Below are positions 1-36,708 of a DNA stretch of 39,191 bases, one piece after another. The notes below the pieces were generated by a model, which worked only from the letters and a program-made list of their open reading frames with translations, did not search any database and was not told the DNA's origin. The stretch spans positions 1 to 39,191 of the IMG/VR virus record IMGVR_UViG_3300017766_003831. One strand, given 5' to 3'. Position numbers and translations under genes: made by a program. The stretch is from a virus (lineage: Duplodnaviria; Caudoviricetes). The first letter of the stretch is position 1; every line of letters starts with the position of its first letter.

Positions 1-1527
1 ATTTTGACGAACAATCTCGTATGGGTTGATTTCTTTAAATGTCAAGAATATTTCTTTTTCCTCGTCAGTTAAAATATAATCAGGTAAACCTAAAACCGAT
101 CCTTGATCTTTTAAAATTTGTTCCCAAACACTATCAATGTTGTATCCTTTTTTCTCAAGTAAATCTTCTAAAATTCTATTACGTTTAATAAAAACACCTT
201 TTGCTGTTTTTAAGTTATAAACATTTGCAGGAATAGGTTCAATTGAAGGAGAAACACCACCTGAAATATGAGCATTCGATACTGTGGGGGCTGGGGCTAG
301 GTGGTGGGTATGTCTTAAGCCTGTTCCTTTACACCATTCTGGTTCACCGTATTGTTCTGCTTGATCACGAGATGCTTTTAATGCTTCTTTTTCAATAAAT
401 TCAAATATTATTCTTGTATAAGCATTTGCTTGAATACCTACAAATGGAATATTTTTTGCTTGTAAAAATGTATGCCATCCTAAAACACCTAATCCAATTG
501 CTCTACCTTTAGTAGCTGAACGAACTGTGTTTTCCATGAATTTAATGTTTTTAGCTCTATCAATAAATTCTTGCAATACACCTTCCAAAAACCAAACAGA
601 TAGTTCAGGTAAAGTCATTCCATTTTTAAATTTAAAATCTTTCCATTCATCCCAACGAGCTAAATTTAATGAAGATAAACAACAAATAAATGAATGTAAT
701 TCATCTGTATAAAGAGCAATTTCAGTACAAATATTAGTCATTGATACTTGTAAATTATTCTTTTTATATGCTTCAGGATTTGCTTTATTAACATTATCTC
801 CAAACATAATGTAAGGTTCACCTGTTTCAAGACGTGTTTTCAATATTTCACCCCATAATTTTAATGCTTTAGGATCTTTATTTTCTAATTTATCCATAAA
901 TTCATCATCAATAACAACACACTGATGTAAATTTAAGCACTGACGATTAACATCCCCTTTAGGACGGCGAATCATTAAAAATTCTTCCATGTCTGGGTGG
1001 TTAATGTTTAAATTAACCGATGCTGCTCCTCTACGTACTGAACCTTGATTAGTTGCTAATATAGTTGAATCATAAATTTTAGCCCAAGGAACTACACCTT
1101 CACTTACACCATTGTCTTTAATTTGTTTTCCTCTGCCTCTAATTCTTGATAAACCAATCCCAACTCCACCACCTTGAGAAGATAATCTCATTAATTCAGA
1201 GTTTGCATCAGCAATTCCTTCAATTGAATCACCTACATCAATTCCAAAACATGAAATAGGCATTCCACGTTCAGTACCCATGTTTGATAAAACAGGTGAT
1301 GCTAAACATAACCAATTTCTTTCTATTGCTTCGTAAAAGAATTGTTGTAAATCTTTACGTTTTAATCGGCGGGCTGCAAATTTGCTTACTCGTTTATAAG
1401 CATCAAAAACATTTTCGTCTGGGAGAAGGTATCCTTTTGATATCATACTTAGTCCTATTTCATCGAGCCATAAAGGAAAATCACGGTTTGGTTTCCAATT
1501 TAATGTGTTTGTTTCAATTTTACTCAT
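1..1527 (-). CDS. nrdA: Ribonucleotide reductase class I alpha subunit (3' end runs off the window; no ATP cone)
   Basis: Missing from the ORF track because it has no stop in the window. Manual translation from the ATG at 1527 is open to position 1: MSKIETNTLNWKPNRDFP...SPVLSN...PISCF...GGGVG...QGSVRRGA...TNICTEI...CCLSSLNL...RAIGLGVLG...APTVSNA..SGGVSPSIEP. These are canonical RNR alpha motifs, including the NxCxE active site. Confidence 0.96.
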   Translation of the reverse strand, partial: MSKIETNTLNWKPNRDFPLWLDEIGLSMISKGYLLPDENVFDAYKRVSKFAARRLKRKDLQQFFYEAIERNWLCLASPVLSNMGTERGMPISCFGIDVGDSIEGIADANSELMRLSSQGGGVGIGLSRIRGRGKQIKDNGVSEGVVPWAKIYDSTILATNQGSVRRGAASVNLNINHPDMEEFLMIRRPKGDVNRQCLNLHQCVVIDDEFMDKLENKDPKALKLWGEILKTRLETGEPYIMFGDNVNKANPEAYKKNNLQVSMTNICTEIALYTDELHSFICCLSSLNLARWDEWKDFKFKNGMTLPELSVWFLEGVLQEFIDRAKNIKFMENTVRSATKGRAIGLGVLGWHTFLQAKNIPFVGIQANAYTRIIFEFIEKEALKASRDQAEQYGEPEWCKGTGLRHTHHLAPAPTVSNAHISGGVSPSIEPIPANVYNLKTAKGVFIKRNRILEDLLEKKGYNIDSVWEQILKDQGSVLGLPDYILTDEEKEIFLTFKEINPYEIVRQN

Positions 1528-2243
1528 ATTATTCGTTTTCTATTTTTTGATTTTTTGTTAATTTTACCATAATTAGGATTAGGTTCAAATTTAATTTCAA
1601 ATCCTTCCCATTTAAATGGTTTATTACATTTAGGATTTTTACTTATTTTACCTTTATTAACCCAATTCCTTATTGTTAACTCATTTACTCCCCATTTTAT
1701 TAATGATTTAATATTTTTAAATTCTAATTGACTATTTAATGGATCTATCAAAATGTATTTACCTTTACTTGTTCCAAAATTACCTGCTAATTCTCCTGGT
1801 CTTTTAACACCATACATAGGATGCTTAGGGCCTTCCATAGGTTCAATAAATTTTAAATAAAATTCTTCATCAGATAAATTTTGGATATTTTTAATTATGG
1901 TTTGTTTTCGTTTTTCTATAATCTCAGGAGACCATTTTTTATTATTTTTACTTTCTTTGATTCTTTTAATTTTTAACTCTTCAATAGCTTGTTTTTTATT
2001 TCCATCAATTCCACTCATTAATCTATATGATATCCAATTATTATTTGTTGGTAACCATTTATATAAAAGAAAGTGAGCAAAAACATGTTGTTGATATGTT
2101 AATATTATTAAATTATTTTCACCGTCATCTCCTCCAGATGATTTAGGTATAATATGATGTTTATGATATATTTTACCTTCTTCTATTGGTTGATTTTGAC
2201 AATTTTCAATATGTTTGTAATATAATTTTTTCCAATCTATCAT
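1524..2243 (-). CDS. Free-standing HNH homing endonuclease, MobE-like, with NUMOD3-like C-terminal segment
   Basis: HKHHIIPKSSGG..ENNLIILT..QHVFAH HNH motif resembling T4 MobE; HPMYG NUMOD3-like motif; lies between nrdB and nrdA with an ATGA overlap at the nrdA start. The ORF track starts at 2258; the ATG at 2243 (MIDWKK) is preferred because the promoter motif overlaps the upstream ATG. Confidence 0.85.
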   Translation of the reverse strand: MIDWKKLYYKHIENCQNQPIEEGKIYHKHHIIPKSSGGDDGENNLIILTYQQHVFAHFLLYKWLPTNNNWISYRLMSGIDGNKKQAIEELKIKRIKESKNNKKWSPEIIEKRKQTIIKNIQNLSDEEFYLKFIEPMEGPKHPMYGVKRPGELAGNFGTSKGKYILIDPLNSQLEFKNIKSLIKWGVNELTIRNWVNKGKISKNPKCNKPFKWEGFEIKFEPNPNYGKINKKSKNRKRII

Positions 2244-2269
2244 AATATTATTTATCATAAATATTATGA
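2240..2269 (-). promoter_or_regulatory. Start-codon-sequestering hairpin overlapping a promoter motif
   Basis: Perfect 10-bp inverted repeat TCATAATATT (2240-2249) / AATATTATGA (2260-2269) contains the ATG at 2243-2241. The ATATTTAT promoter motif is at 2257-2264. Confidence 0.55.
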
Positions 2270-30593: not shown

Positions 30594-33416
30594 TTATTGA
30601 TTTACAAAGAATCTTTCAACTAACACACTAATGTTTCCACCATAAGTTGTATTACTTCTAAACATGGTAATTCTATAGAATGGATAATTAGCATCAGATC
30701 CAGCGCTTATGGTAATATCTAATCTCATGTCAGATCCCATTCCTGTTGGATATATATCCACTATACCTGAGGCTACGTTAATATCACTAGTAACAGTTGT
30801 TGCTGCTGTTGAACTAAATACGTGACATTGAACTCTACCTGAAGCTGGATCTGTTAATACTGTTAATTCTGGATCAGTACCTGATGAGTCATATCCTAAA
30901 AGAATGTAGTTATCTTGGTATATAGGTCGAGTTGTAGTTAAGTAACTAAAACTTCTATATTTTGTAATACCTACATTGTAATTTTGTGTAGATGATCCAG
31001 TTGGTATAGTGAATGTTAAAGAAGATGTTGTTTGGGAACTAGTAATACCACCTGGTCTTATGTTTAATGATCCTGATATGTTTACTAAACTACCTGTTTT
31101 TTTCAAAACAACATTTGGGTAATCATATATATTAACATCCCAATTTGAAGTTGCTTCAATTATTGGTAAACCAGAAACATCATTTACCATGTAAATAGAT
31201 CCTGATGTTACATCATTTACTGTAAATTGGCTACCAACATTTGATGCTCCAAAATCTACTATTAAATTTTGTGTATTAGATCCACTGAAAGATCCAGTGA
31301 AAGTTGGTAACAACCTTAATGCAGTTGAAGTTTGATTTGGTGAGTTATTTGTGAATACTGGAGCAATGGTTGTTTGGAATATTCTTGAACCAGTTGTAGC
31401 AGGATGAGTTAATCCTTGATTTATGTTTTGTACTGATTCTGAATTAAGTACTGAGAATGATCCAGTTAATGTTTGTCTACCAGTTATTGTTAATGAACCA
31501 GTCATTAACGCTGAACCAGTTGCTGTTAAAGCTCCATTCATTGTTAATGGACCTACTAAAGTTAAAGAACCAGTTAATAATGATGATCCAGATACGGTAA
31601 ACGTTTGTACTAGTCGATTAACGAACGATGCTGTACTTGCAAATGATGATGATAAAGCTGAATCTGCTCTTGAAGCTGATACTGTTCTCGATGAACTTAC
31701 TGCCCAAGATCCAGTACCAAACAAACTACCCGATAAAGAACCAGTGAAACTACCAGTAATATTACCAAAAGTAATACTTGCTGTTCCAAATGTAGAAACG
31801 GCTTGTGTAGCATCTAAAGCTGATTGAAATATTGTACTTCCTGAAAATAAGAAGCTGTCAAAATCAAAATCAAGGTACGAAGCAGATACAGAGAATACAC
31901 TTCCTGTTGCTGAACCAGATATTGTTAAAGATCCAGTGAGAATTACATTTTGATTAAGTGGATTAACAAATGATGCTGTTGAAGCAAATGAACTACTTAC
32001 TGCGTTTAATACGTATGAGGCGGTTGTTGCATTACTTGCCCAACTTGCTGTTCCAAATAAACTACCAGTTATGTTTGGTAAATTAGCACTACCTGTAACC
32101 TCGAGGCTACCACTTACTATTGTTCTACCAATAAGTGTTTGTGTATCATTTGTTGCATCTCCAAATTGATTTGAACCTGATGAATATATTATTGAAGCTG
32201 ATTCATATGCTACATTTAGATATGCTATTGAAGCGGTTCCATTGATTGATACATTGCCATTAACAATTACGTTTTGATTTAGTGTGTTTAGATAAGATGC
32301 TGTTAAAGCATTAGATGCTGTGCCAAATAGGGATCCAGTTACACCTCCATTAGTTACACTCAAACTTCCAGTTAATCCATATGAACCACTTAATTGATTT
32401 GTGTGTGTCCAAACTCCATAAGACCCTGACTGCACATATGTCCACAAATCTCCGTATGCATAGTTTCCTTGAACTCGGACTGAACTTAAATCTGAAAAAT
32501 CAATGGGCTCTTGTACAGCTACATAAATGATACCACTACCTCCAGGACTTGCTTTTACACATACTCCTACAGGAATAATTTCAAAAGGTGCTTCAGGAGC
32601 TGTTCCTGTTAATAATCCTGCTGTTGTTGAAACATATAAGGTTTCACCTTCAATAAAGGCATTTGTGTTTAATCCTCTAACTAGTCCTTGAGTAGTAACA
32701 TATCCAAAACTATTTGCTTCAATATTGTGAGTAGCAAGACCTAGGATCTGATTATCAACATTAACACTTCCTGACACTGCTATAGACTGTGCTAAAACGG
32801 CTGTTGGAACATCCCCTTGAGATCCATCTAATCGAACAACAGAACCATTTGCTATTGTTACTCCAGTGTTATTACGTATTCTAGTCCAATTTTCTTGTCC
32901 TACTTGCAAAGTAACATCCGCTTCAGCATTATATACATCTAAACAACTATCTATATTGTTCCAATATACTCTACCTGATTTCCAAGCAGGTGCTGCTGAT
33001 CCAGTATTAAAATCTATGTAATTTACACTTGTAATACTGCCTAATATAGTAAAGTCATTAGCATATGAAGCTGTTTCAGCATAAGAACTGCTTAATGATT
33101 TGTTAGAATAAGATGCGGTACCTAATAAAGATCCAGTAAATCCATCCGTTGATAGGATAGATCCCGTTACAATTAAACTACCAGTTATTTCTGCACTTCC
33201 AGTAAATGGAAATCCAGCTCCACTTCCTCCACCTCCATTTAAAGCATAAGAAGCTGTTAAGGCATAAGATGCGGATTCAATGGTTCCTAATAAAAGGGAG
33301 GCTGTTAAAGCATATGATGAGGTTCCTTCAAGTGAACCTGTTATTCCGTTTGATACGGTTAATGTGTTTAAAGATGCGTCACTACCCGATGTAATGACTT
33401 TTTTCCAATTTGGCAT
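30594..33416 (-). CDS. Ser/Thr/Gly-rich tail fibre-like protein
   Basis: 940 aa with many TGS/SGS and TASYA motifs, beta-rich segments and an internal globular domain (GLAT..I....FGYVT..GLV....T..F.EGETLYVS). Confidence 0.7.
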   Translation of the reverse strand: MPNWKKVITSGSDASLNTLTVSNGITGSLEGTSSYALTASLLLGTIESASYALTASYALNGGGGSGAGFPFTGSAEITGSLIVTGSILSTDGFTGSLLGTASYSNKSLSSSYAETASYANDFTILGSITSVNYIDFNTGSAAPAWKSGRVYWNNIDSCLDVYNAEADVTLQVGQENWTRIRNNTGVTIANGSVVRLDGSQGDVPTAVLAQSIAVSGSVNVDNQILGLATHNIEANSFGYVTTQGLVRGLNTNAFIEGETLYVSTTAGLLTGTAPEAPFEIIPVGVCVKASPGGSGIIYVAVQEPIDFSDLSSVRVQGNYAYGDLWTYVQSGSYGVWTHTNQLSGSYGLTGSLSVTNGGVTGSLFGTASNALTASYLNTLNQNVIVNGNVSINGTASIAYLNVAYESASIIYSSGSNQFGDATNDTQTLIGRTIVSGSLEVTGSANLPNITGSLFGTASWASNATTASYVLNAVSSSFASTASFVNPLNQNVILTGSLTISGSATGSVFSVSASYLDFDFDSFLFSGSTIFQSALDATQAVSTFGTASITFGNITGSFTGSLSGSLFGTGSWAVSSSRTVSASRADSALSSSFASTASFVNRLVQTFTVSGSSLLTGSLTLVGPLTMNGALTATGSALMTGSLTITGRQTLTGSFSVLNSESVQNINQGLTHPATTGSRIFQTTIAPVFTNNSPNQTSTALRLLPTFTGSFSGSNTQNLIVDFGASNVGSQFTVNDVTSGSIYMVNDVSGLPIIEATSNWDVNIYDYPNVVLKKTGSLVNISGSLNIRPGGITSSQTTSSLTFTIPTGSSTQNYNVGITKYRSFSYLTTTRPIYQDNYILLGYDSSGTDPELTVLTDPASGRVQCHVFSSTAATTVTSDINVASGIVDIYPTGMGSDMRLDITISAGSDANYPFYRITMFRSNTTYGGNISVLVERFFVNQ

Positions 33417-33432
33417 ACTATTTTAATTTTTT

Positions 33433-33492
33433 ATTGTGGTTAGATACATACACTTATGCCGTGTATATGCCTACTTCCTTTCGGCCAACAAT
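33433..33492 (-). ncRNA. Candidate structured cis-regulatory RNA (three-way junction) in the fibre gene 5' leader
   Basis: GC-enriched island in an AT-rich spacer; P1 AUUG(U)UGG/CCACAAU, P2 CC-GAAA-GG, P3 UAGGCAUAUACAC/GUGUAUGUAUCUA; lies between a promoter motif and the ATG. Confidence 0.55.
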
Positions 33493-33501
33493 GTATATTC
33501 A

Positions 33502-33532
33502 TAAATATACTATTTTTTAAGAAAAAATCAAA
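33502..33532 (-). promoter_or_regulatory. Putative promoter TTTG-N19-TATATTTA
   Basis: TTTG (33532-33529), 19-nt spacer, TATATTTA (33509-33502), immediately upstream of the leader structure. Confidence 0.55.
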
Positions 33533-33535
33533 TTT

Positions 33536-33712
33536 TTAATCTTCTTTTACGAACAAATCGTCCCCTACTTCTTTTACTTTAGGTTCAGATAGTTCTCTTA
33601 ATTTTTGTTCTACTTTTAATTGAAGTTGAGTTAAAAATTTTGAATCAGCTCCTTTAATAGTAATGTGATCTAAAGCTGCTCTAACTATTTGTAATTCAGG
33701 TAACGTAAACAT
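33536..33712 (-). CDS. Small helical hypothetical protein (58 aa, not in the ORF track)
   Basis: Manual translation MFTLPELQIVRAALDHITIKGADSKFLTQLQLKVEQKLRELSEPKVKEVGDDLFVKED*; overlaps the end of the glycosyltransferase gene; loosely similar to the C-terminal half of 36472-36708. Confidence 0.65.
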   Translation of the reverse strand: MFTLPELQIVRAALDHITIKGADSKFLTQLQLKVEQKLRELSEPKVKEVGDDLFVKED

Positions 33713-34757
33713 ATTCTTTTATTTTTTCTTCTATTGTTTGTAATACATCTTCTTTAGATACAGGGTGTAATACTTCTTCATACTTTATAATATCTCTTGG
33801 ATATTCTTTATTGTATATTCTAGTATAATTTTGTGTTGGTTCATGATATGGAGGAGTAAAGTCACTTATTAATATAACATGCACATTACATCCCCAAGCT
33901 AACCAGGATAACCCAGATGAGTTTCCAACAAAAAATTGTGATTCTGCTAAATCTTGTATTCTATCGGTTAATGGGTAATCTCCAGACTTGTTTGTAACGT
34001 TTTTTAAATAGGACGATTCTTTACTAATTACTACAACTTCATATCCATACGAAACAAATAAATCTACTATTGCTTGCCAACCACCTATAACATTCCAATC
34101 TTTTACTTTAAGTGAAGCATATTCACTAATGCAAACTTTCTTTTTACGAGGAACTAGTGGATAATCAATTCTTGGTTTTGCTTCTACATACTCTAATCCT
34201 AAAATATCTGATGCTATCTTTTGTAGTGGATTGTTTAAATATAAACTAGGTTGGTATGTAAGGTTTACAAAATTAGAAGTTCCAATATAATATTGAGCAT
34301 ATACATTATGTATTTTTGTATTTGGAGCTACAAACATTATGTCTGGATATGTGTTTATGAATAAGTCGTTCCAAAAGGTTGAGCATATAACTCTACAATT
34401 ATGTTTTACTCTGAATTGTTCTATATAATCAATCCAAGCTAAATTGTCACCTAATGCTCTAGCATCCATTTTAATAAATACCACTTTATTTTCTAGGTCT
34501 AGGGAGTGAGTGTGTATTATATTATTCTGTGCATCTTTAAATACTATTTTCCACTTGGTGTAGTATTGTCTAATCCCTACAATAGGTTTATTTTTTTGCT
34601 TTAGTGTTCTGGTTTCTATTAGATCTCCAGTTTCATCATCTATGTAGTCCACTACTACTTCATTCTCTAACTCCTCTTGTGTTTGTGGATATAGTGTTAT
34701 AATAGGTGTTCCTACTTCAAATGGTAGGTTTGTTACAAAGTCTACTTTTACTTTCAT
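33696..34757 (-). CDS. Aah/TibC-like autotransporter O-heptosyltransferase family glycosyltransferase (GT9-related)
   Basis: N-terminal beta domain (YYTKWKI), V.I..DARALGD.LAW, FR.KHNC.VICSTF, K.W...GWQ..VD, FVG.SSGLSWLAW, VILISDFT. Confidence 0.75.
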   Translation of the reverse strand: MKVKVDFVTNLPFEVGTPIITLYPQTQEELENEVVVDYIDDETGDLIETRTLKQKNKPIVGIRQYYTKWKIVFKDAQNNIIHTHSLDLENKVVFIKMDARALGDNLAWIDYIEQFRVKHNCRVICSTFWNDLFINTYPDIMFVAPNTKIHNVYAQYYIGTSNFVNLTYQPSLYLNNPLQKIASDILGLEYVEAKPRIDYPLVPRKKKVCISEYASLKVKDWNVIGGWQAIVDLFVSYGYEVVVISKESSYLKNVTNKSGDYPLTDRIQDLAESQFFVGNSSGLSWLAWGCNVHVILISDFTPPYHEPTQNYTRIYNKEYPRDIIKYEEVLHPVSKEDVLQTIEEKIKEYVYVT

Positions 34758-35185
34758 TTGTTAAAAGAAATTTTAAACCATGCTTTTTCATGTAAAAAAT
34801 AGATAAATGGTTTAATTAGTAATTCACCAACTCCTAATAAGGAGTATACTTCCCAAGATGCTCCTAAACAATAGGCTGTAGCTACTGTAGTAGCTGTGGC
34901 TGTTAGTCTATAAGTAATTGTCTTTAATAAATGTCTTAAATTTGGATTGTCTGCTCGTTTTGTTTTGATATAAGCTACACCATCCTTAACTTCTAGAATA
35001 CCTTCACAAGTAATGTGATATTTGTTTCCTAAATTTTCAATATAATCCTTTGTTGTTCTAGTTTGTGATGTAATAACAATATCAGAAACTAATGTTTCCT
35101 TACCATCATTAATTAATCTCCAGCTTTCACTGTCGTTTTTTGAATTAGTGTTATATCGAATTTGATAGGTTTTTTGTTCGCTCAT
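34754..35185 (-). CDS. Fusion of a small beta domain and a DUF2061-like membrane domain
   Basis: C-terminal RHLLKTITYR..AT..T.......ELLIK...YFLHEKAW matches the DUF2061 pattern. Confidence 0.65.
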   Translation of the reverse strand: MSEQKTYQIRYNTNSKNDSESWRLINDGKETLVSDIVITSQTRTTKDYIENLGNKYHITCEGILEVKDGVAYIKTKRADNPNLRHLLKTITYRLTATATTVATAYCLGASWEVYSLLGVGELLIKPFIYFLHEKAWFKISFNK

Positions 35186-35633
35186 TTAATTTATTTTTAA
35201 TATAATCAAAACAATCATTAGGTAGTATGTTTGTTGTATCAATGTCTATAAAATTAGTAAGTGGAGCTTCATATTCTGTTGTGTGAAAATGTTCTCTACC
35301 ACGTACATCCGTTGTATGTACATATAATTCAACTATACTATCGCCTAAAGCAGTTTTAAAAGATTCACGTAATTCTCTATAAGGAGCTACCAAACTAACT
35401 ATAACATTATGTCCTCCATGAAATATAAATTTAGCAATGTCTTGAGCTCGTTTGATATTTTCTTCTCTTCCTTCTCTACCATACTTGGAATTGTTGAAAA
35501 GAGCTCTAAGTTCATCACCATCAATATGGAAAATCTTTTGTGTATTTTGTTTTTCTAAATACTCTTTTAGTAGCTTTGATAAAACTGTTTTACCAGCACC
35601 CGGCTGACCTGTAAACCAATAGATCTTATTCAT
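35151..35633 (-). CDS. cysC: Adenylyl-sulfate (APS) kinase
   Basis: WFTGQPGAGKT P-loop, IDGDELR, GREENI, VSLVAPY...R, YEAP; the lid region is shortened. Start placed at MNKIYW (35633). Confidence 0.85.
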   Translation of the reverse strand: MNKIYWFTGQPGAGKTVLSKLLKEYLEKQNTQKIFHIDGDELRALFNNSKYGREGREENIKRAQDIAKFIFHGGHNVIVSLVAPYRELRESFKTALGDSIVELYVHTTDVRGREHFHTTEYEAPLTNFIDIDTTNILPNDCFDYIKNKLNERTKNLSNSI

Positions 35634-35634
35634 T

Positions 35635-36453
35635 TTAATTATATTTAAACTCTCTAAAAAACCATTCATACTTTGACTTAATAAAATTACAAGTGTTGGT
35701 TCCTAAAATTTCTTTGTAATTGTTTTGTATAGGTTCTATTTTTTTACGAATATTATGATCTCCATAAATTCCATATACTTCATCATCTTCTACTGTAATT
35801 TGTTCCACATTATCAAAGTCATGTTGATAGTAAGGTAATTCTAAATAGTTGTAAATTCGTTTTAATTCTGCTTCTGGATTAGAACATAGATCTTCAAATT
35901 TTACAAATAGCATTTTACTATTGATTCCTTCATGAAATATCTGTTGTATTCTTTCGAATGCTAATCCAACTGGTGGAGTTGATGACCACGTTTCTACTCT
36001 TTTTTGAGTAGTTGTATTCTGCATTTTCGAATGGTTTACAATACCCGAATCTTTATCTTGATTTTTTCTAAAGTTTTTCTCCATGGAAGCATATATTGCT
36101 CTTGGATCTCGAATCATGCAAATAATTTTTGGATTAGGATAGAAAGAATTTAAGAACCCATAATGAATACCCCAACCTCTGCTTTTATCTAAAACATAAG
36201 GTTTGTTTGTTACTCCGTTATAGAAACCGGACATTCCGTACAAACAGAAGGATCTAAATCCTTTTTGCATTAATGTAGCATCTTGAGCTTTGAACTCTGG
36301 AGAATTTGTGTAGTTCCCCCTTGCTGCATAAAGCAATTCAAGTACTCCGGATGTTGGAGTAACGTAAAAATCAGGGTTTTGTCCTATTATATTTTGTAAT
36401 AGAGTTGATCCAGCTCTTGGTAGAGATGATTGAAAGAAAATTTGATTTGGCAT
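35635..36453 (-). CDS. PAPS-dependent sulfotransferase
   Basis: 5'-PSB motif SLPRAGSTLL, DKSRGW, 3'-PB motif IRDP..IYAS, VKFEDL..NP. Confidence 0.88.
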   Translation of the reverse strand: MPNQIFFQSSLPRAGSTLLQNIIGQNPDFYVTPTSGVLELLYAARGNYTNSPEFKAQDATLMQKGFRSFCLYGMSGFYNGVTNKPYVLDKSRGWGIHYGFLNSFYPNPKIICMIRDPRAIYASMEKNFRKNQDKDSGIVNHSKMQNTTTQKRVETWSSTPPVGLAFERIQQIFHEGINSKMLFVKFEDLCSNPEAELKRIYNYLELPYYQHDFDNVEQITVEDDEVYGIYGDHNIRKKIEPIQNNYKEILGTNTCNFIKSKYEWFFREFKYN

Positions 36454-36471: not shown

Positions 36472-36708
36472 TTATTTAGTTAAATAATACTTTTGTAATT
36501 TAAAGACTAAATTATATAATAATTCTAAATTTTCACCTTTAAATGTAGAGTTTTTAATTAACGTTAACATAAGCTCTATTTCTTGTTTTTCCAAAGAAAA
36601 ATTGTTTTCTTTTAAAGAAGTGTTGTTTTCTTTTAGAGAAAGATCTCCTTCCTTTACGGAAGGAGATTCATTCTTCATTTTGTTTAGTATTCCCATAACT
36701 AAATTCAT
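36472..36708 (-). CDS. Small hypothetical protein (possible fibre chaperone)
   Basis: 78-aa ORF following the fibre gene; FKGE....LY.LV.KLQ; short SLKENN duplication. Confidence 0.65.
   Translation of the reverse strand: MNLVMGILNKMKNESPSVKEGDLSLKENNTSLKENNFSLEKQEIELMLTLIKNSTFKGENLELLYNLVFKLQKYYLTK

Follow-up and report, generated by a model that had tools for sequence, protein, structure and literature searches.

A widespread three-way-junction leader RNA upstream of a fibre-like phage gene, absent from Rfam 15 and probably a translational switch

The leader of a gene for a fibre-like virion protein in a T4-like myovirus contains a structured RNA element that is a widespread motif absent from Rfam 15. 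We suggest, with a probability of about 55%, that the element is a translational off-switch bound by a factor, probably a phage protein. The factor would bind the invariant junction and lock the three-way-junction fold, and the locked fold would keep ribosomes off the start codon, in the copy described here by means of a six-pair pseudoknot formed by an apical loop. Relatives would act on the start region in other ways, namely through a loop of the other arm, a rewired loop or a mutually exclusive fold in a long leader, such that one binding core would serve swappable read-outs.

The element was identified in the IMG/VR virus record IMGVR_UViG_3300017766_003831 (Duplodnaviria; Caudoviricetes), and the whole stretch of 39,191 nucleotides that was analyzed is referred to here as the window. 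This fragment contained genes for sheath, tube and neck proteins, gp32, UvsX and NrdAB, and the completeness of the virus record was estimated at 24%. The element is located in a gap of 119 nt between 2 minus-strand open reading frames of 58 and 940 amino acids, the latter of which starts with MPNWKK (Table 1). It ends 16 nt before the ATG at position 33416, and both the sequence and the coordinates given in the first-pass annotation were correct. The helices were named P1, P2, and P3 according to convention.

Table 1. Coordinates of the leader element and of the associated features in the window.
Feature	Position	Strand	Basis
Whole element, three-way-junction leader RNA	33433..33492	(-)	Fold, RNAalifold, covariation; single strong covariance model match in the window, 59.6 bits (model includes the window copy)
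P1 5' strand: AUUGU, bulged U, GG	33485..33492	(-)	Lower pairs covary, 1-nt bulge conserved
P2 mini hairpin CC-GAAA-GG	33477..33484	(-)	Length varies in the family; anti-start loop located here in one subfamily
Invariant junction strand AAG plus U-R-G-R, foot of P3	33470..33476	(-)	Family pairing counts
P3 apical loop GGCAUAA	33454..33460	(-)	GGCAUA (33460-33455) exactly complementary to the start-codon region, free duplex -9.1 kcal/mol
2-nt bulge, invariant C-Y-A-A-C-C, P1 3' strand	33433..33445	(-)	Invariance and covariation in the family
UAUGCC: base -1, start codon, 2 bases of the Pro codon	33412..33417	(-)	Would pair with the P3 loop in the predicted pseudoknot
ATATTTAT, late-promoter-like motif	33501..33508	(-)	Recurs before structural genes
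940-aa MPNWKK fibre-like virion protein, gene likely controlled	30594..33416	(-)	Position, sequence searches
58-aa helical-hairpin protein, candidate ligand or fibre chaperone	33536..33712	(-)	Co-conserved upstream gene
78-aa likely paralogue of the 58-aa protein	36472..36708	(-)	95.5% probability; alignment already held second-type sequences

The minimum-energy fold of the element was the three-way junction that had been proposed from the sequence (-14.1 kcal/mol), and its G+C content of 40% exceeded the 6% to 28% of the 10 other spacers of at least 34 nt that were measured, as had also been remarked. The single-sequence fold was not significant (z -1.59), since 19 of 200 shuffled sequences were equally stable, and the opposite strand gave -9.6 kcal/mol (z -0.20). 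It is thus because of the family, and not because of the single fold, that the element is considered to be more than chance. An intrinsic terminator or transcriptional attenuator was rejected, as there was no terminator-like site with a hairpin and a U-tract in positions 33000 to 34000, in agreement with the U-tract having been reported as missing. An 8-bp hairpin was predicted at positions 33376-33396 (-), inside codons 7-14 of the fibre gene.

To describe the pairing in the family, we used a pooled set of 149 sequences that was anchored on the invariant letters, without any pairing filter. The inner pair of P1 was G-C in 142 sequences and A-U in 6, with a single mismatch, and the R-Y pair in P3 was G-C in 93 and A-U in 55, again with a single mismatch. 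The next pair in P3 was G-U in 134 and A-U in 13 of the 149 sequences, which bears out the earlier argument that the G-U pairs favour a function as RNA on the minus strand. The lower pairs of P1 also covaried (A-U 79, G-C 59, U-A 7). RNAalifold recovered the same three-way junction from a MAFFT alignment of 72 of 148 members, hand-picked for diversity. In this alignment, double changes were observed at 12 of 17 pairs and 96.8% of the cells paired, compared to 83.8% in shuffled controls, a test that is inflated by kinship among the sequences, and 20% to 53% in slid controls. Hence, both the conservation and the covariation in homologous leaders that the first-pass annotation had proposed to look for were found.

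The earlier description of the P3 stem was partly revised. The stem itself was recovered, but the register with a C-A mismatch at its foot was not that of the family, in which G23-U47 and C24-G46 pair in 147 and 147 of the 149 sequences, respectively, and 2 bases are bulged on the 3' side; for the window copy alone, the single-sequence energy prefers the mismatch register (-14.1 versus -10.3). P1 contains a 1-nt bulge and P3 a 2-nt bulge, the lengths of P2 and P3 vary, and 12 bases around the junction were invariant across very divergent phages. Invariant unpaired junction bases in combination with 2 arms that are free to vary form the pattern of a binding site, and the junction core is therefore a candidate binding site. 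Tandem G-A / A-G pairs extend to k-junctions, and a k-junction was rejected because the invariant 3' junction strand of the element is without a G. Such tandem pairs have been described for k-turns (PMC5435971).

The association of the element with a single type of gene was examined from both sides. A 17-mer from the core was found at 55 viral loci, in 54 of which a protein starting with MP[N/S]WKK began about 53 nt downstream, while the remaining locus was at a contig edge. Conversely, a pattern for the first codons retrieved at least 123 loci with 114 distinct upstream regions, of which 105 were fibre-like. The core was present at 96 of the 99 MP[N/S]WKKV genes in this gene-anchored set (93 near and 3 far) and at none of 6 MPTWKKV paralogues; of the remaining 3 MP[N/S]WKKV genes, one had an apparent variant by eye (L057) and 2 were without the core. 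An element-anchored set contained 247 distinct copies after pairing filters, with an MPx start within 45 nt in 238 of these, including one HNH fusion. The other 9 copies comprised 3 with long spacers, 2 with GUG starts, 2 located before other nuclease genes, 1 that was cut off and 1 with no such start within 150 nt. The full element at locus L573 was not followed by an MPxW start in the next 150 nt. Open reading frames for HNH (Pfam PF01844) and GIY-YIG-like proteins were located directly behind the element in L188:261-485(-), L588:375-578(+), and L269:3-284(-), and since the 2 HNH frames begin with MPNY, their insertion seems to have taken place at the fourth codon of the fibre gene, by which they took over the controlled start.

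In 5 genomes that were complete or nearly so, the covariance model identified a single copy each. Among cultured phages, the element was found in one group only, represented by Flavobacterium phage immuto (host Flavobacterium sp. LMO8), in which it precedes a gene annotated as a "putative tail fiber-like protein". In total, we estimate that a thousand or so viral contigs carry the element (about 780 and about 1100 stored stretches, with chance matches among the latter). For bacterial and archaeal genomes, 120 of an estimated 3300 or so matches to the core pattern were examined, all chance-like and with no true copy among them; the search covered 3 of 64 parts, and host copies are thus possible. 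One weak, coding-like match was noted (L344), and matches to the core pattern in Prochlorococcus were not the element.

The 940-aa product was confirmed to be fibre-like, whereas its assignment to the tail was not established. Residues 205-299 gave a weak match to Phage_cement_2 (E 4e-4; window 31200-31500 (-), the residue coordinates being the reliable ones), which along with look-alikes in the Atlas suggests that the protein may be attached to the capsid or the neck and not to the tail. No solved relative of the protein was found. A sulfotransferase, an APS kinase, a DUF2061 protein and a weak match to glycosyltransferase-9 were encoded between fibre genes at 33696-36453 (-), a cluster with a possible role in sulfation or glycosylation of the virion fibres.

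In 133 of 148 loci, the nearest upstream gene encoded a homolog of the 58-aa protein, as determined by 3 rounds of profile search, and the protein family included 801 representatives. The protein had no convincing match to PHROG, PDB sequence, fold, or Atlas families and no RNA-binding signature, and was modelled as 2 helices with low confidence (pLDDT 59, no fold match). A likeness to Rop was unsupported. In immuto, 2 small genes were located in tandem at the corresponding place (gp054, gp053), and at locus L170 a look-alike small gene abutted an MPSWKK gene without the element, as judged by eye. The acidic C-terminal GDDLFV of the small paralogues also resembled, by eye, the ends of neighbouring fibre proteins. 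Loop classes were scattered in a tree of the small proteins (90 sequences and 73 alignment columns, built by a quick method from both paralogue types together, with P2-loop members not represented), which is too weak for the origins of the classes to be counted from it.

The element starts just after the motif ATATTTAT, which had been taken for a promoter. The window contains 11 minus-strand copies of this motif, and since 6 copies besides that of the element are located 16-37 nt before the starts of structural genes, we consider the motif to be promoter-like and infer that transcription starts from it. It was present upstream of the element in 107 of 148 family members, and because motifs of this type precede the GG of P1 by 10-33 nt, the fold is likely kept in the late transcript. 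Timing of the T4 gene e type, with a promoter inside the hairpin, was ruled out by the spacing. One motif copy was found 6 nt from the called start of a free-standing HNH endonuclease gene at 1524-2258 (-), between 2 ribonucleotide reductase genes.

The translational control by a protein or ligand that the first-pass annotation had put forward is consistent with the anatomy of the leaders, that is with the pairing of a loop with the start codon and with the predicted 2 states of long leaders. A conserved structure that overlaps or pairs with the initiation region, as in a translational operator, was found in the family. For the window copy, a loop-start pseudoknot of 6 pairs is predicted, in which the P3 loop would cover positions -1 to +5. 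Among the first 148 members, 45 had a P3 loop of the GGCAUA type and spacers of 19-25 nt, while 24 had a UGGCA-type loop on P2 facing UGCCA (22 with a GGAG motif and 1 with the promoter motif). In another 2 members, which had the longest spacers, a different loop faced AGUGAG directly upstream of the AUG; overall, 5 members had a rewired loop and a matching new target immediately before the AUG, and both GUG-start members had a CAC-led loop.

Loop-start pairing was scored at the start window in 58 of 76 cases in the first set, versus 75 of 1289 downstream control windows, in 37 of 54 versus 45 of 666 for loci fetched later, and in 95 of 128 versus 180 of 3581 for all loops of at least 6 nt, counts that are not independent events because the members are related and the loop classes correspond to about 3 inventions. 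Per distinct loop, the score was 7.45 versus 6.23 +/- 0.17 for shuffled loops, with a small excess (6.51 versus 6.08) when GGCA-type loops were left out. A U at position -1 was present in 41 of 45 P3-loop, 35 of 63 loopless and 1 of 24 P2-loop members. The Pro codon was CCA in all 24 P2-loop members and CCG in one that was identified later. The loop variants GGUAUA, GGCAUG, UGGUA, and UGGCG still pair via G-U, and the pair-breaking variants, 3 GGCAUU loops and 2 UGGCU loops on P2, lose one pair. Strong loop-start pairing was absent in 119 of 240 members, and the predicted end of P1 was nearer the AUG in members without loop pairing (median 8 nt versus 13). An alternative pairing of the 5' strand of P3 with the start (-10.7 kcal/mol) was rejected, as it requires P3 to be opened and is not kept in the family.

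Five distinct leaders had spacers of 117-126 nt in which the P1 3' strand occurs a second time. In all 5, an alternative fold was predicted from nearest-neighbour energies to be favoured over the junction state by 2.2-5.7 kcal/mol. A ribosome covers roughly positions -12 to +13 or more, and opening of -12 to +13 would cost 6.1-9.7 kcal/mol in the junction state versus 3.4-5.6 in the alternative fold, whereas the mean-unpaired measure differs by just 0-0.10 between the states. The 2 folds are predicted to be mutually exclusive, with the junction state freeing a strand to enclose the AUG. These leaders represent a single lineage, their switch helices hardly covary, the consensus fold is a mixture, and the alternative strand may in part have arisen by duplication. 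The leaders at L198:540-652, L139, L144, L497, and L660 also shared a conserved stem-loop in their middle, GACUCAU...UGUC. The default-on, bound-off logic of the long leaders is the main ground for suggesting that the junction is bound by a factor and that this leads to repression.

The core occurs both in leaders that have a Shine-Dalgarno motif and in leaders that lack one, which may belong to different hosts, and the host genome matches that were examined included no copy. This makes a phage-encoded protein likelier than a host-specific factor, with a universal metabolite as a less probable candidate. Candidates for the factor are the small protein encoded upstream, which is co-conserved, and the fibre itself, and the purpose would be feedback on the copy number of the fibre. 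Two interconvertible leader folds, one of which is stabilised by a protein and represses translation, have been described for the rpsO (S15) operator of E. coli (PMC3985624); the element differs in that it precedes a phage structural gene, has a three-way-junction core and several read-outs, and has no match to an Rfam r-leader. Initiation is also blocked by a protein or a covered AUG at the T4 gene 32 pseudoknot, the gene 43 hairpin and occluding hairpins (PMC3014915), but the products of genes 32 and 43 are nucleic-acid-binding enzymes or factors.

Much of the same evidence would be expected of a small-molecule or ion riboswitch, in which the junction binds a host metabolite and lowers fibre synthesis, as the combination of an invariant core, interchangeable read-outs and an exclusive fold in long leaders is riboswitch architecture and the core is indifferent to the presence of Shine-Dalgarno motifs. 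The GAAGUR strand also resembles the junction strand of the glutamine-I riboswitch (glnA RNA, RF01739; 5DDO/5DDP), which is likewise a start-proximal three-way junction of about 60 nt with a GAAGUA-type strand (PMC6698751). However, the RF01739 covariance model gave no match in the window, with a positive Synechococcus control, and loop E of the riboswitch (GAAGUAA / UGAAGC; PMC5393176) is absent from the element, in which the 3' strand is C-Y-A-A-C-C and the R-Y pair is Watson-Crick in 148 of 149 sequences. The ligand contacts reported there (C1:G59, G22, C58, and the G23-C60 pair; PMC6698751, PMC5393176) are not kept: just AAG is found between P2 and P3 in place of the G22-G23 linker, and the outer pairs of P1 vary. 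The riboswitch also precedes different genes, whereas the element always precedes the same structural gene and never a metabolic one, and the genome matches that were examined included no true copy. A phage-confined riboswitch class with one aptamer and at least 4 interchangeable expression platforms, by which a host metabolite or ion sets the number of fibres per virion, is accordingly an unlikely explanation.

We regard as similarly doubtful a constitutive attenuator without a ligand, the fold of which would fix a low translation rate for stoichiometry. Initiation is tuned by mRNA structure in Flavobacterium (PMC6847099), fixed hairpins are used by T4 e, soc, 49, and I-TevI (PMC3014915), and in loopless members the predicted end of P1 is close to the AUG. 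Yet neither 12 invariant bases in very divergent phages nor an alternative fold in which the junction is lost would be needed for a fixed rate, and the T4 hairpins contain a late promoter that removes them, while the element is downstream of its motif.

Slightly less probable still is an element for processing, stability or enhanced initiation, such as a nuclease site, a 5' protector or a ribosome-recruiting fold. Such a role would fit the location of the element, which in most members is at the predicted 5' end of a late transcript and in 23 of the 24 P2-loop members is intergenic with no promoter motif, and enhancing folds occur in T4 genes 38 and 25 (PMC3014915). These are located between the Shine-Dalgarno motif and the AUG, whereas the element is upstream of both, and the start-codon complementarity and long-leader energetics point to occlusion rather than enhancement. 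A DNA-level site, either a recombination point or a palindrome bound by a protein, marking the edge of a variable fibre module, is largely refuted by compensatory changes and strand-specific G-U pairs in 3 helices and by the single copy per genome, although the sequences diverge soon after the first codons and homing-endonuclease genes insert right behind the element.

The earlier failure to assign the element to a known family was upheld: searches of Rfam 15 gave no match in the window at the gathering cut-off and a best E-value of 5.8, with none on the element, and the one match in 6 relatives (E 0.058) was outside the element. Candidate structured RNAs that are located no more than 25 nt from structural genes of phages have been mined from IMG/VR, including GP20-a, GP20-b and other motifs (Fremin et al. 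2023; PMC10690425); the element compares with these in position, and has no Rfam match. The motif had no match in 4 supplementary files of that study and may be among its 8495 unnamed candidates, and the literature searched, exclusive of subscription papers, contained no description of the motif. The accessible text of a T4 review from 2010 names no riboswitch for T4 (PMC3014915).

The off-switch reading places the element in a sparsely populated category, as few protein- or ligand-bound leaders are to our knowledge known for phage structural genes. A compact invariant junction that is kept, by our estimate, in roughly a thousand viral contigs would imply an unrecognised RNA-binding partner or ligand, and the motif points to feedback on the number of virion fibres. 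One core would have evolved several routes to the start codon, also without Shine-Dalgarno pairing, and the cultured pair of immuto and Flavobacterium sp. LMO8 makes the motif testable.
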